Positions 1-57,054 are shown, counted from the stretch's first letter. The stretch is 64,000 nucleotides of DNA from Myxococcota bacterium (GCA_039028615.1 JBCCHT010000026.1:32001-96000); one strand, 5' to 3'. The notes: generated by a model from the sequence alone, not told the origin. Made by a program: numbers and translations.

Positions 1-3000
1 ACATCGACTTCGATGCGGCGGGTATCCGGGTCCCGGGTGCGGCCGAGCCGTGGATCGGTGGAGCCTCGGGCGAGCCGCTGCGCGCGGGCATCAGCGCGTT
101 CGGAGCGGGCGGCAGCAACGTTCATCTCCTGCTCGAAGCGGCCGACGAGGCACCTGCCACCTCGATGCCCGAGCAGCCGGTCGCGTTCGTTCTGTCGGCG
201 AGGGATCAGCCGGGGCTTCGACGCTACGCACGAGATTGGCTCGTGTGGCTCTCGGGGCAATCGGAGTCCACGTCGACTTCGGCGGCGCAGCTGCGCGAGC
301 ACGTCGCTCGGACTCTCGGTGTGTCGGCCGACGACTTGGCGGGGGAGTCGATCGTGGACCTCGGGCTCGACCCCGCGACGCTGCAACGACTACGAGCCGA
401 CGTCGATGCGGAGCCTCGCGCTCCAGGCAACGCTTCTGTGGCCCTCACCGACATCGCCCATACACTTCAAGTCGGGCGCCCTGCGTTCGAGCATCGGCTC
501 GCCGTCGTCGTGCGTACGCTCGACGAGCTTCGCCGCCACCTGGAGAGCTTCGTCGCTGAACAACCCGCGTCTGGGACGCTGGCGTGGTGGGGCGAGCCTA
601 CGGCTCCATCGAACGATGCCCTCGATCCCACGAGCCTCGAGGCGTTGGCCCAACGTTGGCAGCGAGGCGAGCCCGTCTCGTGGCCACGCGTCGGCGAGGG
701 AGGCTCGAGCCCTCGCCGCATCAACCTCCCCCCGTATCCGTTTCACGGCGAGAGCTACTGGTACGGCCGCTGGAAACGCGGCAACGAGCCGGGGCCCCTC
801 GTCGCCGCCCGACCCACTCCCGATCAGGTATCGACCATGACCATCGCAGAACCAACCGAGAAGAAAGTCCCGGATTATCACGGTGACGAGGTCGGACTCG
901 AAGTGCTCGAGTCCGGGATCGCGGTGCTGATGCTGCAGGCAGAGGCCCACGACAACATGTTCACTTCGGGGTTGCTGCAGGGGCTCCAGTGGGCGCTGGC
1001 GAAGGTCGAGCGAGACCCTCGGGTCCGCGCCTTGGTGTTGAGCAGCCGCGGCCCCACGTTCTGCATGGGCGGCACGCCGGAGGCGCTCGAACGCCTCGCG
1101 CGCAAACAAGGGCGCTTCACCGACGCTTCGATCGTCTACGAAGGGTTGCTCCGGTGCCCGGTTCCCGTGATCTCGGCCATGCGCGGGCACGCCTCGGGAG
1201 GCGGCCTGATGTTCGGACTCTATGCCGACATCGTGGTGATGTCGCAGGACGCGGTCTATGGCGCCAACTTCCTCAAGTACGGGTTCACGCCCGGGATGGG
1301 GGCGACCTACGTGCTGGAGAAGCGGGTGGGAAGTGCGTTGGCCTCGGAGATGTTCCTGACCGGTCGAGGCTTCGGAGGTCGTGAACTCGAACGGCGAGGT
1401 TGCAATGCCACGTTCCGCACCACGGACGAAGTGCTGCCCCATGCATTGGAGCTGGCCCGGGCGGTCGCGGCGATGCCCCCGAGCGCGGTTCGGGTGCTGA
1501 AGGCGGAGCTCGCGGGGCGTTGGCTCCGAGAGCTGCCCGCGACGATCGAACGTGAACTCTCGATGCACGAGCGTGTGCTCGGCGACGAGTCGCTCCAGCA
1601 GATCGAACGCCACCTGGGTCGCGAAGTCGGCGACGTGCCGCCACCTGCTCCGCGCACGCCTTCGCCGATCCCCGAGGCGGTGGTTCAGAGCAACGCCCCG
1701 ACCAACGTCGCGGTGACGAAGTCGGTGGACGTCGATGCGCTGCGGCGGCGAGTCGAAACGACGCTGGTCGAGATCCTCGGCAAGACCCTCTACCTCCGTG
1801 AGGACGAGATCGATCACCGTCGCCCCTTCAACGAGCTCGGTGTCGACTCGATCGGTGCGGTCACGATCATCCGGGACCTCAACGATCGCTACTCCATGAG
1901 CCTCGACTCGGTGCTCCTGTACGAGCATCCGACGGTCGAACGGCTCGCCTCGTATGTCGCGGAGGCACTGGCGGACCAACAGCGTTCGACCGACGCGGTG
2001 TTGCGTGATGCTCCAGCGCCGATTGTGGAGCCGCAGCCCCTTCCCGCGATCGAGCCCGAGCCCGAGCCGGTGACGACTCCACCAACGTCGCCGCGCTTGT
2101 TGCCGCTGGCCGATCTCGGGGTCGAGGCGCAATCCGACTGGCCCGTGGATCCGTCGCCGGGGCGGGTGGCCCTCGCCCCGATCGAGGGCCGCCCGCCCGC
2201 GGGGTCTCACGATCCGGTTCAGCACGACAGCTCCGATCGACCCGAGCCAGAGGCGACGAAACCCGCGACCACGGGGCCTCGACCCATCGCGGTGATCGGC
2301 ATGTCGGGTCGATTCCCGGATGCCCCCGACCTCGATGCGTTGTGGACGAACCTCGCCGAAGGGCGCAGCAGCGTGCGGGAGATCCCGCGTGAGCGTTGGG
2401 ACGTGGAGCGCTACTACGACCCCGACCATCGTGCGCCCGGCAAGACCCTCAGCAAGTGGGGGGCGTTGTTGGACGACATCGATCGGTTCGATGCGCGGCT
2501 ATTCAACATCTCGCCGATGGAAGCGGAGGTCATGGATCCGCAGCAGCGCCTCTTCCTCGAGCAGGCATGGGCGAGCCTCGAGGATGCGGGCTACGCCTCT
2601 TCGGCGGGGCAGACCTCGTGTGGCGTGTTCGTGGGGTGTGCGGCGGGAGACTACGCCGACCGTCTCGTCGACCACGATCGGCTGAACACGGGCGAGGGCT
2701 TCCTGGGCACGGCGGGGTCGGTTTTGGCGGCGCGGATCGGGTATGTCCTCGACCTCACCGGTCCCACCGTGGCCATCGATACCGCGTGCTCGTCCTCGCT
2801 GGTCGCGTTGCACATGGCGTGTGAGGCGATTCGTAGTCGGCAGTGCTCGATGGCGATCGCGGGTGGCGTTGCGTTGATGGTCACCCCGCACATGCATGTG
2901 CGTACGAGCAAGCTGGGCATCCTGTCGCGGCGAGGCGTTTGTGCTCCCTTCGACATCTCCGCCGACGGCACCGCGCTGGGCGAAGGCGTCGGTGCGGTCG

Positions 3001-6000
3001 TTCTCAAGGACCTCGAGCAGGCCATCGCCGACGGCGACCACATCCACGCCGTGGTTCGTGGCTCGGGCATCGGCGGCGACGGTCGAACGAACGGACTGAC
3101 GGCCCCCAACGCACAGGCTCAGGCGTCGCTACTACGTACGACGTGGGAGCGCAGCGGCATCTCGCCCTCCGACATCGACTACATCGAGGCCCACGGCACG
3201 GGGACGGAGCTCGGCGACCCGATCGAGCTCAAGGCGATCGTCGAAGCGATGGGGGAGGACGCGAGCGGAGACCGGCCGTGTGGCGTCGGCTCGTTCAAGT
3301 CCAACGTCGGGCACACCACGATGGCCGCGGGGATCGGCGGGTTATTCCGAGCCGTGCTGGCGATCAAGCACGGCATCGTTCCGCCCACGGCTCACTTCCA
3401 GTCGCTCAACCCCAAGGCCAACCTCGGCGGCACTCGACTGTGCATCGATGCGGTTGCGCGACCGTGGAACCCGGGAGCGGTGCAAGAGCGCGTGGCCACG
3501 GTGAGCGCCTTCGGGTTCTCCGGTACCAACGCTCATGTGGTGGTGTCGGGGGCTCCGCCTCGCCGAGACGGCCTCTCGATGGCCGCCGATCAGCCCGTGC
3601 TCGTGCCCGTGTCCGGGCGAACGACCGAGGCGCTGCGTCAACGAGTGGCCGATCTCGCCGCCGCTCTCGACTATGGGCACGCGGCCGTCGATGTCGCGTT
3701 CAGCCTCGCGGTGGGTCGTAGTCACCTCAATCACCGTGTCGCGTTCGTGGCTCGAGGCGAGGCGGAGCTGCGTCGTGCGTTGTCGTCGTGGTCGCGCCGC
3801 GCCGACGGTGAATCGGCATCCGCGGGATCGATCGCGCCGCCAGACGAGCGTGCCATCGAGGTCGCCACCGCTCGACCGGAGGGCGAGTCGGCACTGCGCG
3901 TGCTGGCTGACGCCTACGAAGCCGGCCGAGACCTCGACTGGTCGCGCGTGTTCGCGGGGCGAGGAGGCCGTCGCGTTCCGCTCCCGACCTACCCTTTCGA
4001 AGACCAGCGCTTCTGGCTCTCGGAGCGGACTTCGGTCGAACCTTCGACGGATGCGCAGACCTACGCGACCACTCACTATCGGGTGGCCGCGCGTGACGAG
4101 TGGGTGGCCGACCATCGGGTCGCGGGGCGATCGTTGGTCCCGGGCGCGGCCTGCATCGCGTGGGTGGCTTCGGCGATCGAGGCTTCGTCGTTCGAGATCC
4201 AAGGCCTGCGATGGCTCGAGCCGCTGGTGGTGGACGATGTCCTCGAAGTCGCGTTGACCACGGGGACCGGACAGGGCGGGACGGGATTCCGCCTCGAGAC
4301 GCGCGGGGGCACGGCACATGCGACGGGCCGCGTTCGCTCGGGGACTTCGAGTTCGCCTGAGCCAGTTCGTGATCTCGACCACGTCTTCCGCCGTTGCTCA
4401 CGGATGCTGGACGGCGCAGATGTCTACGCCGCCTTCGTTCAGTCGGGCCTCGAGTACGGACCGTCGTACCAGGGCCTCGAGGAAGTACGGCTGGGCACGG
4501 GCGAGGCACTGGGTCGTATTCGTCTCGGCCGTGGGTCTCGAATCGACGGTGTGGGGGCACTGGACCCACGACTCCTCGACGTCGCCTGGCAGGCGATCGC
4601 AGCGCTGACTTGGGACGAGGCTCGCACCTCTCTGGTGCCGTTCTCCGTCGACTCTATCGTGGTCTTCGATGTGACTGCACCCGTCGCGTACTCCCACGTT
4701 CGCCGAATCGATGCATCACACTTCGACGTGGAGCTCCTGGATGCGACGGGGCAGGTGTCGATCCGCTGCGAAGGCATGCACTTGCGCGCAGTGGCTCCGC
4801 CCAGGCGGAGGTCGAGCTATCGACCCACGTGGCAGCCGTGCCCGACTCCGCCAGAGCCGACCACCACCACCACCACGAACATCACTGTGATCCACGAGGA
4901 TCGCGACGAGCCGTTGGTCGAGGCCGTGCGGCGGGCCGCGGGAGGCTCGTCGGTGAACGCCGTATCACTGTGGGAGTCGTCGTCCGCATTGGAGCGCGCG
5001 CTGCGGGACAGCGAGGCGATCTTGGTCGTCGCTGGCTCGAGCCGTCCCGAGGGAGCGGGCCCGGCCGAGCTGGGGAGTGCGGCGCTGCGAGTGACCAAGG
5101 CGCTGTTCTCCGCGGGGCGCCGTCGCGCTGCGTTGGCCCTCACCTTCGTCGTGAGGAACGCGTGCGCACTCGAGGGAGGAGAGCGACCTCAGCCGCGGGC
5201 CGCCACCTGGATCGGCCTGAGTCGTGTCATCACGGCGGAGGTCTCGCGATGGCATGTCACGTGTGTGGACATCGGCTCCGAGCCCGCAGATGAGCGGCTC
5301 GCTCGCGCGCTCGTCGACGGTCCACCTCATCCACTGTCCGCGATCCGCCAAGGCGCATGGCATCGACCTGCGTTCTCCAGCATCGACCTCGTGCCGCCGC
5401 AGCCCGGCCGTGGGTTCGAGCGGGGAGGGGTGTATCTCATCGTGGGCGGGGCAGGGGGGATCGGTCATGCCATCTCCCGGGAGCTGGCCACGCGCTACCG
5501 AGCGACGATCGCTTGGGTGGGGCGGCGTCCGCTGGATGCCGCGATCGAGCAGCAGATCCTCGAGATCGAGAAACTCGGCGGCCGTGCCCTCTATCAGTCG
5601 GCCGACGTCTCCGACGCCGACGCTTTCGAGGCCGCGGTGACGCGTCTCGAGGCACAGGTCGGCCAGTTCCACGGCGCGATCCACTGTGCGGCCGTGTTCT
5701 CCGATCGATCCCTCATCGCGATGGAGGAGGGCGACTTCCGAGCCGTGCTCGCGCCGAAGGTCGCGGGGGCCGAGGTCTCGTCTCGCGTGTTCTCGCGTCG
5801 GCCGCTGAAGTTCATGGTGTTCTTCTCGTCGGCGGCATCGTTCGTCTTCGCGGGGGGCCAGGCCAACTACGCGGCGGCCAGCACCTTCCTCGATGCACAC
5901 GCCGCCTCGCTCGACCTGCCGTTCCCGGTCTCGGTCGTGAACTGGGGCTACTGGGGCAGCGTCGGGGCGTTTGCCGACGAGGACCATCGGCGGCGTTTCG

Positions 6001-9000
6001 AGGCGCTGGGGGTCGAGCCGCTGAACCCCGAGGTCGGGATGGACGCGTTGGAGCGAATCGTCGCGCAACGAGTGCCGCAGGTCCTGGTCCTCGACGCTCC
6101 GCGTGAGCGTCTGGCGAGCTTTGGGATCGATGTGGTGGAGCCGGCGGCTGCTACACCGCGGTCGACCATGCCCGCGGCGGCCGCAGTCGCATCTTCGTCG
6201 TCCTCGGTGGCGGCACCCGCCGTGCTTCGGTACGTCCGGGAGATCTTCGCCGAGGTGCTCAAGTACTCGGTCGATGAACTCGATCCTCAGTCCACCTTCG
6301 AGGCTTTTGGTGTGGACTCGCTCGTCGGAGCGAAGGTTGTCGATCGCCTCGCGGAGGACGTCGGCGAGCTACCGGCCACGTTCCTGTTCGAGCACATGAC
6401 CATCGCATCGGTCGCCGATGCGTTGAGCCAGACCCATGGCGAACCACTGGCGCGAATGCTGGGCGCACCCGAACCGAAGCGCGCCGACGAGGTGGTGGCG
6501 AGGCCTTCGCGGCGACCCGCGGCCGTGCGTGCTCCGGTTTCCGTCGCCACGGACATCGCCGTGGTCGGCGTGAGCGGCCGCTACCCTCGCTCACCCGACA
6601 TCGATGCGTTGTGGCGCAACCTTCGAGACGGGGTCGACTGCATGTCGGAGATCCCCGCCGATCGCTGGAACTGGCGCGACCACTTCGACGGTGAGGAGGG
6701 CCGCGGCATCTATAGTCGCTGGGGCGGCTTCCTCGAGGACGTCGAGGACTTCGACCCGGGCTTCTTCGGAATCTTGCCTCGCGACGCGTCCGAGATCGAT
6801 CCGCAAGAGCGCTTGTTCCTCGAGAACTCGTGGCATCTGCTGGAGCAGGTCGGTCAGGGCAGCAGGGACACCCATGTCTCGCGAACCGGCGTGTTCGTCG
6901 GGGTCATGTACGGGGCGTATGGACAGCTCGCGGCGACGCACTGGCCTCAGGGGCGCTTCCCGGGGGCTCACTCCGCTCACTGGTCGATCGCCAATCGGGT
7001 GTCCTACACGTTCGACTTCCAGGGGCCGAGCTACGCCGTCGACACGGCGTGTTCTTCGTCGCTGACGGCGGTCCATCTCGCGTGCCAGTCGATCCTCGCC
7101 GGGGAGTGCGAGCAGGCCATCGCAGGCGGCGTGAACCTCATCCTGCATCCGGCCCACTACGCGGCGTTGTGCCATCGCCGGATGCTGGCTCGGGACCCGC
7201 ACTGCAAGGTCTTCGACGAGCGCGCCGACGGCTACGTGCCGGGCGAGGGCGTGGGCGCCGTGATGCTCAAGTCGCTGGCACAGGCCGAGGCCGATGGCGA
7301 CACAATCTGGGCGGTCATCAAGGGCAGTCACGTCAACGCGGGGGGCAAGACCAGCGGGTACACGGTGCCCAACCCCAACGCACAAGCGGCGCTGATCGAG
7401 ACGGCGCTGAAGCGCGCCAACGTGGAGCCTCGAACCGTCTCCTACATCGAGGCGCATGGTACGGGCACGGCACTCGGCGACCCGATCGAGGTGGTGGGGC
7501 TGTCGCGAGCGCTGCGAGATCGAGGCGCGATGGAGGCTTGTGCCATCGGATCGGTGAAGGCCAACCTGGGCCACCTCGAAGGCGCGGCCGGCATCGTGGG
7601 GTTGACCAAGGTGCTGCTGCAGCTGAAGCACCGCCAGCTGGCGCCCTGTGTGAATCTGGACAACCTCAACCCTCGCATCGACCTCGATGGAGCGCCGGTC
7701 GAGCCGCAGCGGGCGCTCGCCGACTGGCCACGAGCGAGTGCGTCGACGGACGATCGCGGGGAGCGAGTGAGCCCGCGGCGCGCGGGCGTCAGCTCCTTCG
7801 GAGCTGGCGGAGCCAACGTGCATGTGGTGCTCGAGGAGTACGTGGGCACGCAGGGGGCGGCCGACGCTCCTCGCTCGCCCGTCGACGGACCGTTGCCGTT
7901 CTTGCTTAGCGCACGGTCGGAGCGAGAACTGGACGCACTGGTGACCCGAACCGCCGCATGGGTCGAGGCCGCCGACGTGTCGTTGGAGTCGCTGGTCTAC
8001 ACCAGCCAGATCGGGCGTCGCGAGATGCCGCATCGGATCGCCGTACTCGCGTCCTCCGTGTCCGAGCTCGGACGTCGACTACGCGCCGTCGCCGAGGGCG
8101 ATGCGACCGTCGAAGGCGTGGTCCGAGGAACCTCGGACCATGGCGTCGACCGACGTTCACCGCTGCTGGCCGGCGAGGAAGGCAAGGCGTTCGCCCAGCT
8201 GCTGATGGATCGCGGTGATGTCTCTCGGGTGGCTCAGGCCTGGGTCGAGGGCCTACCCACGCCGTGGTCTCGCTGGTGGACGGACTCGCATCCTCCTCGC
8301 GCGCCGCTGCCCGGCTATCCTTTCGCGCGCAAGCGCTTCTGGGTCGATCCGGTGGGGATGGACTCCGTGGCTGCGCCGTCGCCCGAGCTTCCGCTTCGGC
8401 ACGAACTCGACATCGATCCGAGTGATCCCATCGTCCTCGAGCACCGCGTCGACGGCACGGCCATCGTGCCGGGTATGGCCTGGCTCGAGATCGTGCGGAG
8501 AAACCTACCGGGTGTGACCGCCGATTCTTCGATCGAGGTCGAGGGGCTCACGTGGCCTACGCCCATGCTCGGGTGGTCGGAAGGCGTGATGACCCTGCAG
8601 CCGCGCGACGATGGCTACGACTTCAGCGTGGAGTCGGTCGTGGGTGATCGCGTGTACGCACGAGGGTACGTGCGTGTGGTGAACCACTTCGATGGTCGCG
8701 TCGAACTGCAGCGGTTGCAGGCCCGCATGCCGGGACGCATCGACTCCAGCGACTTCTACACCCGCGCTCGCGAAGGCGGACTCGACTACGGTCCGACCTT
8801 CCAGGTCATTCGCGACTCGTGGGAGGGGGCCACGGAGGTCCTGATCCGCCTGGAAACGAGCGGTGACGCCCCGCTTCGTGGAGCGAGCCTTCGTCCCGAC
8901 CTTGCCGACGGTCTCGTGCAGGGAATCATCGCGCTCGAGCGCGAGGGTCGATCGTACCTGCCGACGGCGGTGGAACGCATCGTCGCTCGTGGCCCCTGGC

Positions 9001-16222: not shown

Positions 16223-16464
16223 CCCGACGAGATGTCATCGCCGCCCTGCATGAGGCGGTTGCCCTGGTCTTGCCCCACGTGGGCGCAGAAGAGATCCGAA
16301 TGGACCGTAACCTCGAGCAGCTCGGAGCGGACTCCGTAGACCGAATCGAGATCCTGGTGGGTATGACTCAGCGCCTGGGCGTTCAACGGCCGCTGTCCAG
16401 CTTCGCCACGGTGCCCGACATCGGGGCGCTCATCGACATGCTGGTCTCGGAGGCGGGCCGATGA
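16219..16464 (+). CDS. Beta-branching donor acyl carrier protein (LnmL-like)
   Basis: 81 aa from ATG 16219 (ATGA overlap with the upstream stop). LGADSVDR donor-ACP motif. Confidence 0.9.
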   Translation: MTRRDVIAALHEAVALVLPHVGAEEIRMDRNLEQLGADSVDRIEILVGMTQRLGVQRPLSSFATVPDIGALIDMLVSEAGR

Positions 16465-17705
16465 GCGCCTCGGAGCTCGGGATCGGCATCGAGGACCTCA
16501 ACGTCTACCTCGGCTGCCTCAAAGTACCCGTTCGCAGCTTCTTCCAGGCGCGCGGGCTCGACGAGCGTCGCTACGGCAACCTCCAGATGCAGGATCGTTC
16601 GATCGCACTGCCTCACGAGGACCCGGTGACCCACGCCGTGAATGCGGCCAAGCCCATCGTCGATGCGCTGGGCGACGCCGAGCGAGCCTCGATCGAGGTG
16701 TTGGTCACGGCTTCGGAGTCGGGCGTAGACATGAGCAAGTCCATCGCGTCTTATGTACATCGATACCTCGGGCTCTCGGGGCGGTGTCGCCTGCTCGAAG
16801 TGAAGCAAGCCTGCTTTGCCACGACGGGAGCGGTGCAGCTCGCTTCGGGCTACTTGGCATCGGGGATCTCGCCGGGAGCGAGGGCGTTGGTCATCGGTAC
16901 CGATGTGGCGATCGTCAACGAGCGAGCTCAGTACGCCGAGCCCACCATCGGCACGGGCGCAGCGGCGCTGCTGCTCGGCCCCCGGCCTCGGGTCTTTCAT
17001 CCCGATCACGGAGCGTTCGGCAATCACAGCTTCGAGACCATGGATTCGGCGCGCCCTCGGCCCGACTTCGAGATTGCGGATGTCGACGGCTCGCTATTCG
17101 CCTATCTCGACTGCCTGGACCGGAGCTTCGCCGCCTACGCGGATCGAGTCGAGGGCGTCGACTTCGAGCGGACCTTCGACTATCTCGCGTTTCACACCCC
17201 CTTCGTCGGACTGGTCAAGGCCGCGCACCGCAAGATGATGCGGAGCACGGGAGCCGACCCGGGGCAGGTGGCGGCCGATTACGAGCGCCGGGTCGCGCCT
17301 TCGCTCGTCTACCCGGGGCAGGTGGGCAACCTTTGTTCCGCGTCGGTGTACCTCGCACTCGCGAGCATCATCGACAGCGGGAACTTCGACGAGGGAACCC
17401 GCGTGGGCCTGTTCTCCTACGGCTCGGGGTGTTCCTCGGAGTTCTTCAGCGGTCGTATCGACATGGAGTCCAAGCGCACGCTGGCAAAGCACCGCATCGC
17501 CCAGCGCCTGGCCGATCGCATCGAGATTACTTTTGAGCAGTACGAGCGCCTACTCGAGGAGAACATGAAGTGCCTCGTACCCGTGGCGGACCGGGTCCTC
17601 GAGACCGCGCCCTACGACGCGTTGCTGGATCGGATCCCGGACCGGGATCCGATGTTGGTCCTGAAGAGGATTCGCCACTTCCACCGCGAGTACGACTGGG
17701 TCTGA
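16461..17705 (+). CDS. HMG-CoA synthase-like beta-branching enzyme (LnmM/PksG-like)
   Basis: EDPVT.AVNAA, SESGVD (catalytic Glu), EVKQAC (catalytic Cys), FHTPF (His), FSYGSGCSSEFFS. Confidence 0.95.
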   Translation: MSASELGIGIEDLNVYLGCLKVPVRSFFQARGLDERRYGNLQMQDRSIALPHEDPVTHAVNAAKPIVDALGDAERASIEVLVTASESGVDMSKSIASYVHRYLGLSGRCRLLEVKQACFATTGAVQLASGYLASGISPGARALVIGTDVAIVNERAQYAEPTIGTGAAALLLGPRPRVFHPDHGAFGNHSFETMDSARPRPDFEIADVDGSLFAYLDCLDRSFAAYADRVEGVDFERTFDYLAFHTPFVGLVKAAHRKMMRSTGADPGQVAADYERRVAPSLVYPGQVGNLCSASVYLALASIIDSGNFDEGTRVGLFSYGSGCSSEFFSGRIDMESKRTLAKHRIAQRLADRIEITFEQYERLLEENMKCLVPVADRVLETAPYDALLDRIPDRDPMLVLKRIRHFHREYDWV

Positions 17706-17726
17706 GCCCAGGGAAACGAGTTCACC

Positions 17727-17987
17727 ATGCAGCCCAACAACTCTCTCGATGGCCACATCCTGTCCGTTCTTCGCCAGTCCTTGCGCACCGTCCTCCCCGA
17801 CCTGAGCGAAGAGCAGCTCGTGCTCGACCGAGACCTCGCCGAGCTCGGGTTCAACAGCCTCGATCGTGCCGACGTCATCACGATGACCATGGAGGCGCTT
17901 GGGGTCGAAGTGCCGGTGGTGCAGTTCCTCGGGGTGAAGACCATCCGAGAGCTGACCCAGCTATTCGCTCGGCAGTCCCGTCGATGA
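17727..17987 (+). CDS. Second donor acyl carrier protein (AcpK-like)
   Basis: 86 aa with LGFNSLDRADVI, an AcpK-type (G.NS.DR) signature. Confidence 0.88.
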   Translation: MQPNNSLDGHILSVLRQSLRTVLPDLSEEQLVLDRDLAELGFNSLDRADVITMTMEALGVEVPVVQFLGVKTIRELTQLFARQSRR

Positions 17988-19228
17988 AGATCGCGATCAC
18001 GGGGATGGGGGCTGCGACCGCCGCGGGGTACGGCGTCGCGCCACTGGTCGACACGCTACGCAGTGGTCGTTCGCAGATGGTCGCGGGAGCTCCACTGGAG
18101 CCTCCCGTATTGGCTCGCCTCCCAGACTCGAAGCCGGGCTCGCCCCCGGGGGCGGTCGAAGTGCCCGCCGGGGTCACGCGGTTGCTCGCTCGTAGCGGGC
18201 CCGAGCTCCAGGCCCTCGTGTGGGCGGGGATGGAGGCTTGGGTCGATGCATCGCTCCACGGAGGGGCCGTGCCGCCTCGTCGCATTGGCTTGGTGATCGC
18301 CGGACACAATCTCACGCAATCCCGGGCCCTCGAGGTCGAGCTGACCTACGCGGGGCGGCGTCGCTACGTGAGCCCTCGATTCGTGCAGGAGTCCCTCGAC
18401 TCCACCGCGCTCGGCATCGTGAGTGAAGCGCTCGGCATTCGCGGTGAAGGAGTGTTGGTCGGTGCCGCCTCGGCGAGTGGGAATGCGGCACTAATCCACG
18501 GCTGCCGCATGATCGCCGACAGTAGTGTCGACGCATGTCTCGTGCTCGGGGCGCCCACCCGATTGACGGCGATGCAGGTCCAGAGTCTCGCCAACACGGG
18601 CGCACTCGGAGGCGCGACCCAAGCCTCGAATCCTCGACGAGCGTGCCGCCCCTTCGACGAGGGTCGAGACGGCTTCATTCCCGGGCAAGCGGCGGCCGCG
18701 ATGGTGCTCGAGTCGATCCCCAGCGCGGCAGGGCGCGGTCGGCCGATGCATGCGACGGTGCTCGGCTACGGCAGTGCACTCGCTGCTCGTAGCGGGCTCG
18801 AGCCCTCGGTCGAGGCCGAGGCCGAGGCCATGACGACCGCGCTCGCCCGCGCGGGATTGAGCCCGGGCCGAGTTGACTATGTCAACGCGCACGGGACTGC
18901 GTCGCGGCTCGGGGACGAGACGGAAGCCGAAGCCCTACGACGCGTCTTCGGTGCGGCGCGCCCGTGGATCAACTCGACGAAGGGTTGGGTCGGGCATGCC
19001 ATTCATGCAGCCGGAGTGTTGGAGGCCGTTGCCGTCGTTGCTCAATTGTGTGGCGGTTTCGTGCACCCTAACGCCAATCTCGACCGGCCGATTGATTCCG
19101 CTCTGCACTTGGTGGGACCCGAAGCCATCGATCAGCCCATCACTCATGCGTTGTCCAATGGGTTCGGCTTCGGCGGCATCAACACATCGATCGCTTTCGG
19201 ACGTGCGCCACGAGCGGAGCAACGATGA
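17984..19228 (+). CDS. Decarboxylating ketosynthase KS0 (PksF-like)
   Basis: Start ATG 17984 (MKIAITGMG) overlaps the ACP stop. Active-site Cys replaced by Ser (GAASASG). HGT and GH histidines and the GFGFGGIN C-terminus are retained. Confidence 0.92.
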   Translation: MKIAITGMGAATAAGYGVAPLVDTLRSGRSQMVAGAPLEPPVLARLPDSKPGSPPGAVEVPAGVTRLLARSGPELQALVWAGMEAWVDASLHGGAVPPRRIGLVIAGHNLTQSRALEVELTYAGRRRYVSPRFVQESLDSTALGIVSEALGIRGEGVLVGAASASGNAALIHGCRMIADSSVDACLVLGAPTRLTAMQVQSLANTGALGGATQASNPRRACRPFDEGRDGFIPGQAAAAMVLESIPSAAGRGRPMHATVLGYGSALAARSGLEPSVEAEAEAMTTALARAGLSPGRVDYVNAHGTASRLGDETEAEALRRVFGAARPWINSTKGWVGHAIHAAGVLEAVAVVAQLCGGFVHPNANLDRPIDSALHLVGPEAIDQPITHALSNGFGFGGINTSIAFGRAPRAEQR

Positions 19229-19986
19229 GCACTCCGAACCATTGGATCCGAAGTCCGCCCAGAGCCTCGGGGAGGATCAAGCTGTTCTGCTTCGCGCATG
19301 CCGGAGGCGGGGCAGGGTTCTTTCATCCCTGGGTCCGCGCACTCGCCCCGGACATCGAGGTGCACCGAATCGTCCTGCCCGGCCGAGAGTCTCGCCGTCA
19401 CGAGCCCGCCATCTCATCGATGAGCGAGTTGGTGCCCCTGGTGGCCTCTGCTTTGCAAGCCCATGCGACGGGACCCTACGCCTTGTTCGGCCACAGCATG
19501 GGAGCAGCGATCGCGTATGAGGTTGCACGGTGGATGAGCACCGCCGATCGCACTCCTCCGGTTCATTTGTTCGTGTCGGGGCGCCGTGCCCCACATTTGC
19601 CGGCCCGGAGGGATCCTTTCCACCTGCTGCCCGATCCGGACCTACTTCGGCTGATTCAGCAGCTCAATGGAACGCCGAGTGAGGTCTTCGAGTCTCGAGA
19701 CCTGATGTCCGAGTTCCTTCCCTGCCTCCGCGCTGATTTCAAACTCAATGAAACCTATCAGCCAGTGCCAGGGGTACCCCTACATTGTGGCGTCACCGGG
19801 CTGGCGGGCGACGGCGATCCGGAGGTCGATTTCGATGAACTGTTCGCGTGGGGCGAGCTCACCACGGGTCCGTTCGAATCGCGCCTATTCGAAGGCGACC
19901 ACTTCTACCTGAACACGAGGCAAGAACAGCTACTCTCCGAGTTGAGCCGACGACTTGTTCGTGCTACCGATCTCTTCCTTCGCTGA
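19225..19986 (+). CDS. Type II thioesterase (LnmN-like)
   Basis: LFCFAHAGGG, FGHSMG, GDHFYL. Confidence 0.95.
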   Translation: MSTPNHWIRSPPRASGRIKLFCFAHAGGGAGFFHPWVRALAPDIEVHRIVLPGRESRRHEPAISSMSELVPLVASALQAHATGPYALFGHSMGAAIAYEVARWMSTADRTPPVHLFVSGRRAPHLPARRDPFHLLPDPDLLRLIQQLNGTPSEVFESRDLMSEFLPCLRADFKLNETYQPVPGVPLHCGVTGLAGDGDPEVDFDELFAWGELTTGPFESRLFEGDHFYLNTRQEQLLSELSRRLVRATDLFLR

Positions 19987-20133
19987 ACAGCTGCAGAAAA
20001 GTCCGACTTCCGTAGCGAGTTCGACGCAGCTCGAATGCGACCCTTCGCATACACATGAATTAGCCACGCATAGGTGCGCCGCTTCGGCATAAGTGGATAC
20101 AAACCGGACCCTGGGACGGCCTACACTTTTGTC

Positions 20134-20153
20134 GGTGTGACGTATTTGACACC
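20134..20153. promoter_or_regulatory. CRP/FNR-box-like palindrome GGTGTGA-N6-TGACACC overlapping a TTGACA hexamer, upstream of the Crp-family gene
   Basis: TGTGA(20136-40)-cgtatt-TGACA(20147-51), one mismatch to TGTGA-N6-TCACA. Flanking GG/CC extend the symmetry. Confidence 0.45.
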
Positions 20154-20337
20154 AGCGCCGAGCGTTATTGCAACGGGTCGGTCGGCTGGAAGGGTGGTCC
20201 GCCAAGGGCCACAAAAATGCTGTTCTGCTCAAGTCTGAGCAGAATGGGCGTAGAGCAACCCCCTATCGTCGCAGCCAACTCAGTCGTCGGGACCGTATAA
20301 AGGCCGTTGCTTGTTTGGCAATGCATGATGCCCGGCC

Positions 20338-21075
20338 ATGGTGGTCCTGCGCAAGGCGTTTTCGCACGTGTCTCGATACATACACGCGGACCTTCATTTG
20401 GGCCTACCGGAGAATACTCGGGTTTCTGTGGCAGATTTTATTGCCAGTAAAACTCTGAGTACGAAGCCTACGGTAGTCCCTCGAGGAACAATCATATACG
20501 GCTGTGGGATGAGCAGCGACTCTGTATGCCTCATTGAAGAAGGCAAGGTCAAGCTCGTTATGCCCACAGAGAAAGGAAAGTGCTGTCTACTGGACATACG
20601 ATCGAATGGTGAGTTGTTCGGTGAACTCGCCATTGCTTCATCGAGTCGCAATCACCTCGCGGTGGCGATGCAGCGGACTTCCTTCTATCGATACCCTTCC
20701 TCCCGACTCTTGACCGAGCTGGCGGACACCGGGCTCTTGCCCGAGCTGGTGAAGTACCTCGCCGCCCAAATCATCCAGCAGGAGGAAATCATCACCGAGT
20801 TCGTCACGACCTGCAGTGAAGAGCGCCTCGCGTTGTTGCTGCTGCGTCTGGCCAAGCGCAGCGTAGGTCGCGATGGCTCGCGCCTGATCCTCGAGGAGCG
20901 AATCTCTTGTCAGGACCTGGCCCAGATGGTCGGGACGACGCGGTCGCGCATCGGGCTGTTCCTCAAGCGGTTCCGAGAACTGGACCTGGTGCGCTCGGGG
21001 AAGACCTTCTTTCTGTCGATCGACGCACCTCGGCTCCGGCAGTACCTCGACGAGCACTTCGGTACCGAGACCTAG
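20338..21075 (+). CDS. Crp/Fnr family transcriptional regulator (LnmO-like position)
   Basis: cNMP-binding barrel (LIEEGKVKL, GELFGE), SEERLA helix, HTH QDLAQMVGTTRSRI. Start codon uncertain. Confidence 0.9.
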   Translation: MVVLRKAFSHVSRYIHADLHLGLPENTRVSVADFIASKTLSTKPTVVPRGTIIYGCGMSSDSVCLIEEGKVKLVMPTEKGKCCLLDIRSNGELFGELAIASSSRNHLAVAMQRTSFYRYPSSRLLTELADTGLLPELVKYLAAQIIQQEEIITEFVTTCSEERLALLLLRLAKRSVGRDGSRLILEERISCQDLAQMVGTTRSRIGLFLKRFRELDLVRSGKTFFLSIDAPRLRQYLDEHFGTET

Positions 21076-21145
21076 CCAATCAGGCCTTGGCTCGGTGCTC
21101 ATGATTGAGCGGGAAGCGGGCGACGGTCGGGACAATATTCGGGTA

Positions 21146-22687
21146 ATGGACGCACGAACCGTCTCGGCTGACTCCGAGCTTCGCACCATCCTCGATGTCC
21201 TCACCGCTCGCGCCGCCCACGAGCCCGAACGCGTGGCGTTGCGGGTGATCGGGGGCCCGTCGTTGACCTTCGGTGAGTGGGAGCGGCGAGCCAACGCGGC
21301 AGCCCACGCTTTGCTCGACGCTGGAGTGAACAAGGGCGACGTCGTTGCCCTGTTCTTCGACGACAGAGACTGGGTGGACTACGCGGTCGCGTATATCGGA
21401 GCGTACAAGGCGGGGGCGGCTACGGTACACATGAACCCGTGGTACCCCGAGGCGGAGCTCGAGCGTCGCATCGAACAATGCGGCATCGAGACGCTCGTCC
21501 ACTCCGCGGACCTACGGCCGCCCAAGGCCGGCCGGGTCCTCAGCGCAGACGCCCTCCACCATGAAGATGTCACTGCGCCCGATGTCCCGCTCGGACCCAA
21601 GGACCTGGCCGACATCGCCTATACCGCGGGCACGACCGAGGGGCGCTCCAAGGGCGTGATGGTCGAACACGACGACTACCTGCTGGGGATCGACCTGGAG
21701 GAGGTCGTCGGCAATGACTCCGCCCTGAGCTTCTTGGGTCCCTTTCCCGCGGGCACTCCCTCGAGTCAGAATATCTTGTTGATGGGGATGGCGATGCCCC
21801 GACAGCTGTTGCTGCTGGACGAGCCCTCGCCGCAAGCCACCTGGGACGCCATCGAGTCCGAGGCCATCACCAACGTGATGATCACGCCGGGCATGGCGGT
21901 CGACTTGGTCAACTTGCCCTGCGCCCGACAAGGCGTGCTCGAGTCGGTGACCTCGCTGTCCGTGGGGGCGGCCGCCATTGCTCCCACGATGATCGCTCGC
22001 TTGATCGCGTTGTTCCCCAACGCATCGGTGACTCAGTACTACCTGTCGCTGGAGTCCATCCCCGCGATGGTGGCGTCGAGCTACGATCCGAAGCGGCCCG
22101 GCGCGGTCGGCAAGCCGCTGCCCGGGACCGGGATCGAGATCAGAAACCAGGCGGGCGAGGCCCTCGGGACCGGTGAGATCGGGGACATCTGGATGCAGCC
22201 GGCGGGGCGCGTACGTGCCTACAAAGGCGATCCGGAGTGGAACGCGAGGACCTTCCACGGCGCATGGATGTCGATGGGGGACAAGGGCTTCATGGACGAG
22301 GATGGCTACTGCCACTTCTACGATCGGGCGGCCGACGTGATCTCCGGCCCGGAGGGCTTCACGTCGACGCTGGCCGTCGAGGACGCGCTCTTTCAGCATC
22401 CCGGCGTGCGGGATGCCTGTGTCGTAGGGGTCCCGGGGGCCGATGGAGCGACACGAGTCGCCGCGGCGCTGGTGCTCGCGCCCGGGGCCGCGGTCGACGA
22501 CGTCCTCTCGGTGTGCCGCGAACACGTCGCGCCGCACCAGGTGCCAAGCGAGGTCCGAGTCGAGGGGTATCTACCCCGCGGGATCATCGGCAAGACGCTC
22601 AAGCGAGAGGTTCGCAAGTGGTTCCATCCCAACAGTGGCGATGCGGCATTGTTGGCACATCGAGAAGATCGAGTGCGCTATTGGTGA
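21146..22687 (+). CDS. Class I adenylate-forming (acyl-CoA ligase-like) enzyme
   Basis: P-loop YTAGTTEGRSKG, MGD, FYDRAAD, C-terminal PRGIIGKTLK. ATG 21146 preferred over 21095. Confidence 0.9.
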   Translation: MDARTVSADSELRTILDVLTARAAHEPERVALRVIGGPSLTFGEWERRANAAAHALLDAGVNKGDVVALFFDDRDWVDYAVAYIGAYKAGAATVHMNPWYPEAELERRIEQCGIETLVHSADLRPPKAGRVLSADALHHEDVTAPDVPLGPKDLADIAYTAGTTEGRSKGVMVEHDDYLLGIDLEEVVGNDSALSFLGPFPAGTPSSQNILLMGMAMPRQLLLLDEPSPQATWDAIESEAITNVMITPGMAVDLVNLPCARQGVLESVTSLSVGAAAIAPTMIARLIALFPNASVTQYYLSLESIPAMVASSYDPKRPGAVGKPLPGTGIEIRNQAGEALGTGEIGDIWMQPAGRVRAYKGDPEWNARTFHGAWMSMGDKGFMDEDGYCHFYDRAADVISGPEGFTSTLAVEDALFQHPGVRDACVVGVPGADGATRVAAALVLAPGAAVDDVLSVCREHVAPHQVPSEVRVEGYLPRGIIGKTLKREVRKWFHPNSGDAALLAHREDRVRYW

Positions 22688-22878
22688 TGTCCGACACAGA
22701 GCCATAATCAAACTGTGCTGACCATGAGGCAATTGCACCGTGCGAGTCGTAGAACTTTGGGGTTGCGGACCGCTGGCCGGCAGGCCTCTTTCCGTTGCCG
22801 TGTTCCGGCTCAGGAACGTGAAATCTCACGGTCCATTGCATCTTGCGTGGCACCGACAGCGGATATAGTCTCGCGGCC

Positions 22879-23271
22879 ATGAGCAAGGCTTCAGGCACAT
22901 TCGAGCTTTCGGCGACCCACGACATCTATGACGAGAGTCCGGGCGCGAAGCTCAGTCGCACCAAATACACCAAGACCTTTCAGGGAGACCTTGTCGCATC
23001 GAGCACGGTCGAGTCCTTGCAGGCGGTCTCCGACGACGAGAAATCTGCGGCATACGTGGGCATGGAGCGAATCTCCGGCACGCTCGGTGGGCGCTCGGGC
23101 TCCTTCGTGCTCCAGCACAGCGGCCTCATGGTAGGGGACGGCATGGAACTCGAGGTCAAGGTGCTCCCAGGAATGTCGACCGATGAGTTGACCGGCCTTT
23201 CTGGCACGATGAGCATCGACATCAGGGACGGTCAGCACTTCTACGAGTTCGAGTATTCCCTCGAAGGTTGA
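22879..23271 (+). CDS. DUF3224 family beta-barrel protein
   Basis: KTFQGDL...AYVGMERISGTLGGRSGSFVLQH...G.STDELTGLSG, the typical DUF3224 pattern. Confidence 0.85.
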   Translation: MSKASGTFELSATHDIYDESPGAKLSRTKYTKTFQGDLVASSTVESLQAVSDDEKSAAYVGMERISGTLGGRSGSFVLQHSGLMVGDGMELEVKVLPGMSTDELTGLSGTMSIDIRDGQHFYEFEYSLEG

Positions 23272-23513
23272 GTTGTTGAATTGATCGCGAGTATCGGTCA
23301 TTGTCGCGGTGCTCGCCCCTTCGGTTCATCGAATGGGCAAGTGCGAGCGGCAAGGCCGTATCGCGAGTGCGCGTTTCGAGCTTGCGCTCTTACGGGCTCG
23401 TGTTTGTAGGTCGAGTGGTGATTACGTCGTTGTTTGGGGTGGACCTCTTTCCTCTGTTCTGGCGCTCAATGATGAGCAGAGGTGATGAGAGTTCTTCGCT
23501 AGACCACGAGTCG

Positions 23514-23876
23514 ATGTCACAACCCGACATGAGCAAGATTCACCCGATTTTCATTCAGCAGGGAGAGCTGCTCGCGAAGCGCGATCTCGATGGGCTGATG
23601 GACCTGTACCATCCCGATGCCGTCTTCGTGCGATTCCAGCGTGTCGCCAGCGGCAAGAAGGAGATCCGGGAGGTCCTCGAGAAATACATCGCGCTGCAGC
23701 TCGAGTTCGTCGCTCTCGAGGAGTACGTCGATACTGGCGAGACCATCATGATGCGTTCCACCATGAAGGTCGAAGGCGAGACCGAGACCTCGTGTGCGAC
23801 GCTCGTGCTCCGCGACGGCAAGATCTGGCGACAGGCGGCCGCGCGAGAGGGTGGCGCCCGCGATTGGGGCTTCTAG
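23514..23876 (+). CDS. NTF2/SnoaL-like protein
   Basis: DLDGLMDLYHPDAVF...G..EIR...LRDGKI pattern, ~120 aa. Start 23514 or 23529. Confidence 0.8.
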   Translation: MSQPDMSKIHPIFIQQGELLAKRDLDGLMDLYHPDAVFVRFQRVASGKKEIREVLEKYIALQLEFVALEEYVDTGETIMMRSTMKVEGETETSCATLVLRDGKIWRQAAAREGGARDWGF

Positions 23877-23879
23877 AGG

Positions 23880-24605
23880 GTGTCGGCGGACCACAGCGGT
23901 GAAATCCCACGGCTCGCTCTGGAGGCGTTCGCCCGGAGCTTTCACCGTGAAGCATGTTCCTACGGCTTCACGGGCGTGGATTACCTGCGGTTCGTCAATC
24001 ATCTCTTCGAGCGCATTTTGGAAGGGGAGCCCGACCCCGAGGTTCGACCGGGTCCCGCTGTCGTTTCGGCGGGGACCCGGGCCGACCTCACTCTTCCGTT
24101 GATGGGCCACGGGGTCGCGCTGGAGCGTTATCTCGAGGCTCGGCATGGCCCAGTACTCAGGCGTTGGCTCGCGGGACGGGCTGGGCGCTACTTCGCGATG
24201 TCGCGAACGACCGCCGAGCGACTGGACGCCGAGCGGCTGATTCGCGATCCCGAGACGGCCTTGGGCGTCATCGCGACACCCGACGGGAGCCCGCTGGGCA
24301 TCGCCGCCTACTTCGGGCTCGATCGAGCACAGGACCGGGCCGAGCTGCGAGTCATGGTCGGCGAGGCGTCCCTGCGGGCGGACGAGCTGCTCGAGGAAGC
24401 GGTGCGCCTGTGGGTCCGGTACGGGATCGAGGAGCTGGGCCTGCGAAAAATCGTGGCCAGCCTCTTGGGCGCTGACCTGCTCGGTGTGCGAGTGCATCAG
24501 CGGCTCGGCTTTGACCTCGAGGGCGTTTTTCGCGACGAGGTGGCCCTGGACGACGGCTTCCACGATGTCGTCCGCATGGCGCTGCTGAGCCCGCCTCAGG
24601 TCTGA
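23880..24605 (+). CDS. GNAT (RimJ/RimL-like) N-acetyltransferase-fold protein
   Basis: AELRVMVGE, ELGLRKI, RLGFDLEGVFR, HDVVRM. The acetyl-CoA-binding G-x-G loop looks degenerate. Confidence 0.7.
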   Translation: MSADHSGEIPRLALEAFARSFHREACSYGFTGVDYLRFVNHLFERILEGEPDPEVRPGPAVVSAGTRADLTLPLMGHGVALERYLEARHGPVLRRWLAGRAGRYFAMSRTTAERLDAERLIRDPETALGVIATPDGSPLGIAAYFGLDRAQDRAELRVMVGEASLRADELLEEAVRLWVRYGIEELGLRKIVASLLGADLLGVRVHQRLGFDLEGVFRDEVALDDGFHDVVRMALLSPPQV

Positions 24606-24984
24606 GTCCAGATGGGCGCAGGCTCGAGCATCCTGCGGAACGCTGCGTCCTTCGTTGCGTGGCCGTAGGGCGTCCGTTTCGGTGCGGATCCATCAGCTGT
24701 CTCCAGAACTCGAGATGGAACTCGCTCTCGGTTTCGCCTGACTCGTCTGCTTCGAGACCCGCGCGGGGCCTGGCCCCCAATGGAGGCTGGAGACCCCGGT
24801 TCCCGCTACGTCTCGCCGTGCTGCGTTCCCGTGCGAGTGCTGCACGCGGGAACGAGTCGTTCATGCAAATGCTGCCGGCTCGAGCCGCGGCCGTCCGTCG
24901 TTGGTCCGTGCGGTCGAAGTGACAGTGCCGACCGTCACGATCTTCGCGGCCACTCGATCACGCCATTAGGCTCATAATGGTGGA

Positions 24985-26793: not shown

Positions 26794-26834
26794 CGCTGCG
26801 GTGCGTGGCTACTCCCGTTCGCCGACCCGAGCGG

Positions 26835-27842: not shown

Positions 27843-28268
27843 GTCTCGAGTATTTCACAGGGCGTCGCGGCGTCTCAACTCGACACGGAGCAAGTGCGAT
27901 CGAGTCGAACGTTTTTGCGAAGACCGGATCGTTCCTCGCCGGCACCATGCTCACACACGGTGCGACATCATCGGTCGATCGATCGAAGACATCAGTGCTG
28001 CACGTAGGCGGGAGCATCCGCATGCGGCAGGGACTGCATCGTGAACGATTGGTTCGGACGAACGAGACTGGGTGGGGCATGCCATTTCTGCACGACTGAC
28101 TCGGTGTATTTCGCGATCGGCTGCAGTTTTCGCTTCGACGCTCTCGCACGGACCGACACCCGACGGTTTCGAGCGGCAGAAATCTCGACCATGACCAAGT
28201 CGGCGTTTTCGTCTTTGAGGAAGAGTCAGCGGGTTCGCGTGAGCAACCTACGGATGTGCACGCCGTGC

Positions 28269-29147: not shown

Positions 29148-29183
29148 GGCCGGGATGATGCCATCATCGCTCGACTCGGGGGG

Positions 29184-41123: not shown

Positions 41124-41158
41124 CCTGGCTGAGGCTCGCGGGCGCTACAATCCACGCG

Positions 41159-46946: not shown

Positions 46947-46980
46947 GCGACCCCAACCTAACACAGGCCTCACCCTCTCC

Positions 46981-56996: not shown

Positions 56997-57054
56997 CGTT
57001 CTCGCGCTTGCTGGAGTCTTCGAGTCACGAATATAACGCACGAGGATATCGACC

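Follow-up and report, generated by a model that had tools for sequence, protein, structure and literature searches.

A probable leinamycin-family biosynthetic gene cluster of the largimycin subtype in a Nannocystaceae genome from a marine metagenome

The window analysed here is a 64,000-nucleotide stretch of a Myxococcota genome assembly (GCA_039028615.1, JBCCHT010000026.1; G000:C26:32001-96000), and the 32 kb lying 5' of it on the 205-kb contig C26 were analysed as well. The assembly amounts to 12.27 Mb in 94 contigs and is 96.7% complete and 1.8% contaminated. Analysis of both parts showed what is very probably a leinamycin-family hybrid nonribosomal peptide synthetase (NRPS)/trans-acyltransferase (trans-AT) polyketide synthase (PKS) cluster of the largimycin subtype, in a genome of the family Nannocystaceae (Myxococcota) from a marine metagenome. 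The cluster spans at least C26:84-56605, with its right end at window position 24605, and is apparently intact, the two PKS frames of 4267 and 6334 aa being free of stops. The assignment of domains and genes is far beyond chance because of the Pfam E-values, the PDB matches of 2e-89 (LnmK) and 5e-64 (PKS lyase), and the coupled overlaps of stops with starts behind Shine-Dalgarno sites. Neither an Rfam nor a tRNA scan of the window gave a match.

Organisation of the assembly line

The window opens within an AT-less PKS gene resembling lnmJ and lrgJ (Table 1). The whole gene (C26:28268-47272) encodes a product of 6334 aa, the same length as database cluster P0001. Scanned with Pfam both as a whole and in 17 overlapping slices, the frame at window positions 3-15272 gave the order ketosynthase (KS) tail, enoyl-CoA hydratase (ECH), acyl carrier protein (ACP), KS, dehydratase (DH), ketoreductase (KR), ACP, KS, DH, ACP, KS, ACP, DUF2156/LPG_synthase_C, Beta_elim_lyase and alpha/beta-hydrolase, with no report of a second terminal ACP at E 1e-4. 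This divergent ACPb was located at aa 3942-3997 of the open reading frame (ORF; independent E-value, iE, 6e-6) by a local profile built from ten carrier domains of the cluster itself. The whole-gene order reads DH-ACP-KR-KS-ECH-ACP-KS-DH-KR-ACP-KS-DH-ACP-KS-ACP-ACP-DUF-SH-thioesterase (TE). Neither the window PKS nor the upstream LnmI-like protein had a Pfam match to Acyl_transf_1. Mapping of homologous DUF-SH-TE synthases placed the ACP-ACP pair before the didomain in 12 of 12 and the ECH at the equivalent position in 10 of 12, and the KR-less module 7 was common to the Pseudomonas and Endozoicomonas homologues.

The SH domain matched the solved PKS lyase domain PDB 9cen at the E-value given above, and 1c7g was also matched. 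Its lysine in SLSKDF aligned with the second lysine of the SGKKD motif of tyrosine phenol-lyase, which we take to be the pyridoxal phosphate (PLP) lysine. The didomain is followed by 390 residues that include the TE, and the layout thus differs from the N-terminal or internal, TE-less one of non-LNM DUF-SH families. HxxxGxxxxP is retained in each of the three DH domains on the J-like protein, and GxSxG was present in both the TE and the type II thioesterase (TEII). KS2 to KS7 keep the Cys, HGTGT and second His. In KS1 the HGTGT is replaced by SAAGAS; the substitution was read as a family trait because the homologue in Sphaerimonospora sp. CA-214678, with AAAGAA there, shares the loss, and KS1 is probably non-extending.

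Upstream, the LnmI-like protein brings the assembly line to eight modules, one NRPS and seven KS modules, with three KSs on the LnmI-like and four on the LnmJ-like protein. One module (KS / DH-ACP-KR) is split between the two proteins at C26:28226/28268. The azole-type NRPS module Cy-Cy-A-PCP-Ox consists of two Condensation-type (cyclisation, Cy) domains, an adenylation (A) domain, a peptidyl carrier protein (PCP) and a nitroreductase-type oxidation (Ox) domain; DxxxxD was found by pattern only in the second Condensation-type domain. The in-line A domain showed the Cys-like anchors D-L-F..L-V-W, presumably close to the Cys code DLYNLSLIWK. The anchors of the free A-PCP, D-F-W..M-V-H, presumably fit the Thr code DFWNIGMVHK. 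This A-PCP, a chlorinating enzyme and an alpha/beta-hydrolase are adjacent (C26:11402-15443) and form a putative loading trio, the transfer role of which is predicted from homology. The chlorinating enzyme keeps H-Q-A where hydroxylases carry a carboxylate, a position that we take to correspond to His116/Ala118 of SyrB2; its Pfam label PhyH was superseded by the TIGR01762 and SyrB2 matches. A short-chain dehydrogenase/reductase (SDR) inside the cluster may be a trans-acting ketoreductase for module 7. No free ECH2 was found beside the LnmK-like, ACP, HCS (hydroxymethylglutaryl-CoA synthase type, also HMGS) and ECH1 cassette.

Downstream, the genes J-K-L-M1-A-D-N are linked by TTGA/ATGA stop-start overlaps with GGAGG-type sites before their starts and, as read from the sequence, are translationally coupled behind good ribosome-binding sites. 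Translation of the LnmK-like gene starts at a TTG that follows AAGGAGGAGG and overlaps with the stop codon of the PKS gene. Its product matched PDB 4HZN/6X7L over its full length (E 2e-89) and retains the PTYLAFYY stretch, including the Tyr at chain position 62, presumably the catalytic residue of LnmK. In the free KS, alignment showed the catalytic Cys changed to Ser with both His kept.

The first-pass annotation, made from the window alone, had proposed an AT-less PKS ending ACP-ACP-DUF2156-PLP lyase-TE, which was borne out by Pfam and the local ACP profile. The LnmK-like, ACP, HCS, TEII and Crp/Fnr genes that it listed after the PKS gene were all present by Pfam, as was its NTF2 protein (SnoaL_2); the list had overlooked the second free ACP and the Cys-to-Ser KS, and left the DUF3224 and GNAT genes unnamed. 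The adenylating enzyme of that list exists as an AMP-binding gene, which scores as a fatty-acyl-CoA ligase type and holds no NRPS A domain. Its expectation of NRPS/azole and trans-AT genes upstream agreed with the LnmI-like gene and the AT-enoylreductase (AT-ER) found in the 32 kb before the window.

Table 1. Features of the cluster. Coordinates are window positions unless preceded by C26; aa, residues of the window PKS frame.
Feature	Coordinates	Strand	Evidence and remarks
LnmJ/LrgJ-like AT-less PKS, 3' 15.3 kb	3-15272	+	5089 aa, 5' end open; uninterrupted frame
In-line ECH (ECH2-type), first beta-branching module (module 5, family numbering)	909-1595	+	PF00378, E 1e-46
Module 7 DH-ACP without KR	8412-9428	+	29 residues between DH and ACP; HxxxGxxxxP kept
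Terminal-module KS	9567-10685	+	Cys, HGTGT, NIGH present
Tandem ACPs, terminal module: ACPa (GLDS), divergent ACPb (QLSSFDML)	11430-11993	+	ACPa PF00550, E 1e-21
DUF domain (DUF2156 / MprF C-terminal fold)	12246-13016; aa 4082-4338	+	PF09924, E 5e-16; DUF2156/LPG_synthase_C, E 7e-15
SH domain (PLP-dependent cysteine/thiocysteine lyase type)	13134-14078; aa 4439-4660	+	PF01212 Beta_elim_lyase, E 7e-22
Off-loading TE	14550-15170; aa 4850-5056	+	PF00561; GASVG nucleophile elbow
LnmK/LrgK-like bifunctional methylmalonyl-CoA:ACP acyltransferase/decarboxylase (by homology)	15269-16222	+	LnmK_N_HDF, E 4e-72; TIGR04098, E 1e-76
Donor ACP 1 (LnmL/LrgL-like)	16219-16464	+	PF00550; 51% to Sphaerimonospora counterpart
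HCS/HMGS 1 (LnmM/LrgM1-like, terminal-module branch)	16461-17705	+	Pfam, TIGR01835
Donor ACP 2 (LrgA/WsmT-like)	17727-17987	+	local profile iE 3e-12; NF005502, E 3e-19
Free decarboxylating KS (LrgD/WsmU-like)	17984-19228	+	NF005490, E 5e-128; ATGA overlap
TEII (LnmN/LrgN-like)	19225-19986	+	PF00975, E 1e-48; GHSMG motif
Crp/Fnr-family regulator	20338-21075	+	Pfam
Acyl-CoA-ligase-like adenylating enzyme	21095-22687	+	PF00501; NF004837, E 9e-70, below its cut-off
DUF3224 protein	22843-23271	+	PF11528, E 4e-35
SnoaL_2 (NTF2-like)	23301-23876	+	Pfam
GNAT acetyltransferase	23880-24605	+	Pfam
LnmI-like NRPS-PKS, 4267 aa	C26:15423-28226	+	PCP-Cy-Cy-A-PCP-Ox-KS-ACP-KS-KR-ACP-KS
Thr-type A-PCP	C26:13533-15443	-	TIGR01733, E 2e-129
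SyrB2-like chlorinating enzyme	within C26:11402-15443	-	TIGR01762, 415 bits vs cut-off 226; SyrB2 PDB 2FCT, E 7e-127
Alpha/beta-hydrolase, GICGG elbow (GxCxG)	within C26:11402-15443	-	motif
FabG-like SDR (L003)	C26:10641-11411	-	inside cluster
P450 (single)	C26:9359-10579	-	
Second HCS (HCS2)	upstream of window	-	42.5% identical to HCS1
ECH1	C26:7056-7826	-	
AT-ER trans-acyltransferase	C26:4741-~7050	-	fabD, E 3e-86; PfaD family, E 3e-180
HlyD/ABC/FtsX/FtsX (MacAB-type) efflux set	to C26:84, contig end	-	

Relationship to characterised systems and sequence relatives

The match to the leinamycin family proposed by the first-pass annotation held, with largimycin (lrg) rather than leinamycin itself as the nearest described relative. 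According to the accessible parts of PMC9396626 and PMC13200230, lrg comprises lrgK (acyltransferase/decarboxylase, AT/DC), lrgL and lrgA (ACPs), lrgD (decarboxylating KS), lrgM1/lrgM2 (HMGS) and lrgF (ECH1), with an ECH2 in module 5 and tandem ACPs in module 8, in the gene orders lrgJ-K-L-M1-A-D-N and lrgE-M2-F-G; three stand-alone proteins, namely LrgS, LrgH and LrgY, load Thr, add a halogen to it and transfer it to LrgI. Compared with this published description, the present cluster resembles that of largimycin (Streptomyces argillaceus, MIBiG BGC0001853) in the order J-K-L-M1-A-D-N in the window and M2-F-G upstream, and in two HMGS cassettes with propionyl supplied via an AT/DC enzyme and acetyl via a decarboxylating KS. 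The module 5 ECH2, the tandem ACPs followed by DUF-SH-TE, the Thr loading trio, the Cys-like A code and the trans-AT are likewise alike. Unlike lrg, it has extra SnoaL, GNAT and FabG-like SDR genes, a KR-less module 7, no methyltransferase (MT)-sized gap and a myxobacterial host.

The likeness to leinamycin (lnm) included the KS-ACP-ACP-DUF-SH-TE end, the structural homologue of LnmK, the K-L-M order, the AT-less PKS with a discrete AT, Cy-Cy-A-PCP-Ox, and the Crp/Fnr regulator and TEII downstream. We take lnm to lack a second HCS cassette, an in-line ECH module and a halogenase trio, and to start from D-Ala via LnmQ/LnmP. As a candidate for such an LnmQ-type starter A domain, the AMP-binding gene was rejected: the A4/A5 patterns hit it only twice, each time partially and in non-canonical form (once as an FDD-type A4 candidate, once as a P....GK A10 candidate), and the score was that of an acyl-CoA ligase. 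The loading trio resembles SyrB1/SyrB2/SyrC of syringomycin in its Thr-type A-PCP, its SyrB2-matching halogenase with H-x-A and its neighbouring GxCxG hydrolase; unlike that system, the trio here feeds a PKS-NRPS starter position. SyrC-type shuttles use the Cys of GxCxG. PMC7618002 attributes eight modules to every leinamycin-type hybrid, with the last one, KS-ACP-ACP-DUF-SH-TE, the same in all of them, and the present cluster showed these features as well as the family's AT-less PKS with a discrete trans-AT. For weishanmycin (wsm) the same paper describes a pair of HMGSs together with a donor ACP, KS0 and ECH1, plus an ECH2 that is in-line in module 5. The cluster shares with it the two HMGSs for modules 5 and 8, the donor ACP and KS0, ECH1, the module 5 ECH2 and the eight modules. 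Unlike wsm, which as described there has no LnmK-type AT/DC, it carries both donor systems and a halogenating loader.

A query with the DUF-SH didomain recovered 97 proteins at E ≤1e-10 among 1147 candidates. The window PKS protein formed a singleton cluster, with the next DUF-SH sequences at 50% (a Micromonosporaceae metagenome-assembled genome, MAG) and 48% identity (Pseudomonas sp. H3(2019)), which speaks against an assignment to a known compound, one of the refuting cases named by the first-pass annotation. The didomain was terminal in 29 of the 97 proteins (the window and 28 others), with 349-425 residues after it, N-terminal in 65 and internal in two; P0097, a partial record, ends 17 residues past its match to the DUF half only. 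This record covers 303 of 640 positions and was dropped from the tree of 96 rows, a quick IQ-TREE run under LG+G4 with SH-aLRT support only. The 29 terminal-type rows, including the window, lay on one side of a branch with SH-aLRT 100 and the 65 N-terminal rows on the other. By name, 18 of the 29 terminal-type rows are actinomycete and four belong to Pseudomonas, Endozoicomonas, Paraburkholderia jirisanensis and a Thermoanaerobaculia MAG. The first-pass statement that the characterised members come from actinomycetes stands; uncharacterised terminal DUF-SH-TE synthases, however, occur in other phyla, and public records already include some from Pseudomonadota and Acidobacteriota. The window row had a long branch (0.63) and joined the Pseudomonas/Endozoicomonas group with a support of 88, which is not strong.

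The genome_contigs scan gave 25 loci, 18 of them actinomycete and seven from Bacillota, Holophagae or Thermoanaerobaculia, with no Myxococcota locus in a set that excluded the window's own record. An HCS 55-60% identical directly followed the TE in 18 of the 25 loci, KS0 was found at 42-53% in 14, Crp/Fnr homologues at 33-38% in 15, and an LnmK homologue in three (L012, L013, L015). Halogenase homologues occurred in the genomes that hold these three loci, three of five genomes, with none in those of L021 and L005. Homologues of the acyl-CoA-ligase-like protein occurred at 32-33% in L013, L015 and L021, and of the DUF3224 protein in L013, L015 and the Sphaerimonospora cluster. SnoaL_2 and GNAT had no counterpart in the 25 loci or the Sphaerimonospora cluster, and their membership in the cluster is uncertain.

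Among the 25 loci the full K-L-M1-A-D-N order was found only in L012, which is part of the uncharacterised cluster of Sphaerimonospora sp. CA-214678 (NZ_CP192056.1; loci L012 and L043-L046). This cluster held counterparts of 14 of 20 queries at 33-62% identity, the 33% A-PCP match lying inside the I-like gene: HCS2 62%, HCS1 59%, halogenase 58%, AT-ER 57%, KS0 53%, ECH1 51%, ACP1 51%, TEII 48%, DUF3224 48%, LnmK 44%, hydrolase 43% and ACP2 43%. Its I-like protein aligned with the LnmI-like protein in a single collinear alignment of 4501 columns at 44.5% identity. Unlike in the present cluster, the genes for the halogenase and hydrolase are situated between those for the I- and J-like proteins. 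In the J-like protein (7018 aa) the ECH is preceded by one more ACP, and modules 6 and 7 carry a KR and contain unassigned gaps.

Host genome and competing explanations

The RpoB of the genome (G000:C6:4573-8775) shared 94% identity with that of Paraliomyxa miuraensis; the identity was 89% with a MAG fragment of the Nannocystaceae, 85% with species of Nannocystis, 84-85% with Enhygromyxa and 72-74% in the next tier (labelled Polyangia or Haliangium). On the contig of the cluster, AcnB (window 50951-53881, minus strand) was 85-91% identical to proteins labelled, where a label exists, as Myxococcota, Myxococcales, Deltaproteobacteria, Nannocystales, Nannocystaceae or Bradymonadia MAGs. The tetranucleotide correlation of the cluster with the rest of the genome was 0.983; 25 random chunks of the other contigs gave 0.945-0.998 (median 0.997), and the actinomycete LNM-type loci 0.88-0.925. 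The GC content was 0.67 for the cluster, 0.668 for C26 and 0.71-0.76 for the actinomycete loci. By these markers the host is a member of the Nannocystaceae, and RpoB, AcnB and the tetranucleotide profile agreed with the first-pass description of the flanking genes as Nannocystaceae-like. Immediately beside the cluster (window 24985-26793), a 602-aa protein without a Pfam or NCBIfam match had as its nearest Atlas cluster a Myxococcota hypothetical protein (score 0.95), and its structure neighbours were propeller-like models without a family.

Run X1, labelled marine metagenome and a possible source, contains the stretch. Its Logan contig covers window 12000-29658, and with it the right border of the cluster, with 0 differences and a depth of 17.3 (flat at about 17-20), and the next Logan contig, from 29981, has a depth of 17.2. 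The check for chimerism around 24.6 kb that the first-pass annotation had called for therefore came out in favour of continuity, within a read check limited to the first 32 kb and with a second assembler on the same data rather than an independent sample. Runs X2 and X3 held only pieces of at most 51 bases on the stretch, with no bearing on occurrence. The Logan break at window 29650-29990 lies inside a VWA/YfbK gene (29184-31202, minus strand) at a doubled local depth of about 35, which suggests a short repeat common to other DNA in the sample.

Within the family, a search with the DUF half as query covered 72 other genomes from 17 genera, five of them of the same genus (of the 73 genomes including the present one, 42 reach 90% completeness or more). 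The 72 genomes gave no DUF-SH, and a single one matched the DUF half, weakly. This match, in genome G451 of the same genus, was rejected as a relative, being a cis-AT KS-AT-DUF2156-DH-KR-ACP protein without a lyase. The locus (G451:C927, L049, 6962-13525) holds a single cis-AT module with DUF2156 alone, beside Mrr/McrBC restriction genes. Among 400 other genomes of the phylum, 39 matched the DUF-SH query at E ≤1e-30 and none had the didomain, the matches listed covering the lyase half only (residues ~310-636) at 31-36% identity in frames of 465-989 aa. The cluster is thus sporadic in the lineage. The simplest reading is that it was acquired by a transfer so old that the composition has had time to adjust, with loss elsewhere as the alternative.

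It is highly improbable that actinomycete DNA came into the bin through mis-binning or a chimeric contig and that there is no myxobacterial leinamycin-type pathway. The exclusively actinomycete origin of the characterised members and of 18 of the 25 related loci speaks for such an error, as do the metagenome label of the run holding the DNA, the position of the cluster at a contig end and the lack of DUF-SH in the other family and phylum genomes searched. However, the same 205-kb contig carries the Myxococcota-type AcnB and, next to the cluster, the gene nearest a Myxococcota hypothetical protein; the Logan contig is free of differences with a flat depth that continues into the next contig; GC and tetranucleotides are like those of the host genome and unlike those of the actinomycete loci; and even the nearest DUF-SH from an actinomycete reaches only 50% identity, with the tree placing the window outside the actinomycete groups. 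Somewhat less improbable, but still unlikely, is a silent or decaying relic of an old transfer from which no product is made. Presence in one of 73 family genomes suggests that the cluster is dispensable, and module 7 has no KR and KS1 no catalytic His. Against decay, both PKS frames are intact, KS2 to KS7 keep Cys/His/His, and the motifs of the DH, TE and TEII, the PLP lysine and the iron-ligand motif of the halogenase are likewise conserved; the genes show translational coupling and good ribosome-binding sites, the composition is ameliorated to that of the host, and the KS1 change is common to the Sphaerimonospora homologue, a family trait rather than decay. Least credible is a 'non-LNM' DUF-SH PKS, one of the other three families in the accessible part of PMC8479088, in which the leinamycin likeness would stop at the didomain and the product would be unrelated. 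DUF-SH didomains are indeed widespread and programmable, and 65 of the 96 tree rows carry them N-terminally on unrelated PKSs (Lysobacter, Trinickia, Fulvivirga, Acidobacteriia and others), but here the didomain is terminal with a TE, falls in the terminal-type clade with a support of 100, and is accompanied by the LnmI/LnmJ-like domain order, the split module, Cy-Cy-A-PCP-Ox, the AT-ER and the K-L-M genes.

Several observations nevertheless weigh against an intact cluster of the largimycin subtype in this host. The genome probably represents a metagenome bin, with RpoB and the cluster on different contigs (C6 and C26). On its left the cluster runs up to the end of the contig, its first gene lying at C26:84, and it may be incomplete there. 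The scanned ORFs of C26:1-56.6 kb, which begin at this contig end, included no LrgO-type FAD oxidoreductase and one P450 versus three in lrg. The lrg comparison itself rests on published descriptions and uncharacterised actinomycete homologues, not on the lrg, lnm, gnm or wsm sequences. ACPb was detected only by the profile of the cluster's own ACPs. The module 7 DH without a KR would need a reduction from elsewhere or stand idle. Finally, thiazole and oxazole both fit the Cys-like code, and the code of LrgI is also Cys-like yet gives an oxazole (PMC13200230, accessible part). With these points weighed, a leinamycin-family cluster of the largimycin subtype in a Nannocystaceae host is still strongly favoured.

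Further along the window, AcnB is flanked by two Ser/Thr kinases (46825-50391 and 55698-57065), of which one carries a PEGA domain, and by a protein with an FGE-sulfatase domain (53967-55667), which is typical myxobacterial content. A low-GC patch at 39414-42304 (0.61-0.63 versus about 0.67) carries a TIR-domain protein (39414-41123, plus strand) and an AspBHI-N/Mrr_cat nuclease (41159-42304, plus strand) and is probably a small defence islet.

Proposed biosynthesis and significance

The following steps were modelled on the characterised lrg, lnm, wsm and syr enzymes by homology. L-Thr would be loaded on the free A-PCP and chlorinated by the SyrB2-like Fe/2-oxoglutarate halogenase, and the GxCxG hydrolase would transfer the aminoacyl moiety onto the PCP at the N-terminus of the LnmI-like protein. 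Cy-Cy-A-PCP-Ox would then add the Cys-coded residue and form an azole. KS1 would pass the chain along unextended, with six rounds of extension to follow on ACPs malonylated by AT-ER. At module 5, acetyl-ACP (from ACP2 and the Cys-to-Ser KS), HCS2, ECH1 and the in-line ECH would produce an exomethylene branch, and at module 7 the FabG-like SDR might, speculatively, serve as a trans-reductase for the KR-less DH module. In the last module, propionyl-ACP (from the LnmK-like protein and ACP1), HCS1 and ECH1 would build a carboxylated branch on the tandem ACPs. The DUF domain would add (thio)cysteine to this branch and the SH domain would cleave the C-S bond, leaving -SH or -SSH; this sulfur step was demonstrated for GnmT, LnmJ and WsmR, according to the accessible part of PMC8479088. 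The TE would release a macrocycle, most simply a macrolactam closed through the Thr amine. Amide closure is the simplest guess because no LrgO was found, by comparison with the lrgO mutant product, in which the closure is an amide (PMC13200230, accessible part). The predicted product is an undescribed sulfur-bearing congener, possibly chlorinated for a time during its synthesis.

As a wider and more tentative proposal, which we hold to be possible with somewhat less than even confidence, the cluster would be part of a Gram-negative leinamycin-family branch that has long been separate from the actinomycete lines. Its nearest relatives would be the synthases of Pseudomonas and Endozoicomonas, with which it shares the KR-less module 7. 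An uncultured marine Nannocystaceae would then make a new persulfide or thiol azole macrolactam with a chlorothreonine starter and two different beta-branches, with ketoreduction by the SDR in trans.

To our knowledge, the leinamycin family so far comprises only four groups of compounds, each from Streptomyces. Its compounds are antitumour leads that alkylate DNA, and the sulfur chemistry of DUF-SH is understood only in part. No paper tying the leinamycin family to myxobacteria was found, with the organism list of 109 DUF-SH biosynthetic gene clusters (PMC8479088) beyond reach, and the titles and abstracts of the thiocysteine lyase papers found named no non-actinomycete producers. Neither the DUF-SH device nor the logic of the cassettes nor the loader with its halogenase is new, and no concept is changed. 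What is new is the Myxococcota marine host, probably uncultured, and the identity of about 40-60% to any relative; new in detail are the absence of a module 7 KR and of an MT-sized gap, and the extra SnoaL, GNAT and SDR genes. A full assembly line in a marine myxobacterium would widen the host range of the leinamycin family. The cluster is a candidate for a new congener, and its divergent DUF, SH, LnmK and tandem-ACP sequences may serve comparative enzymology.

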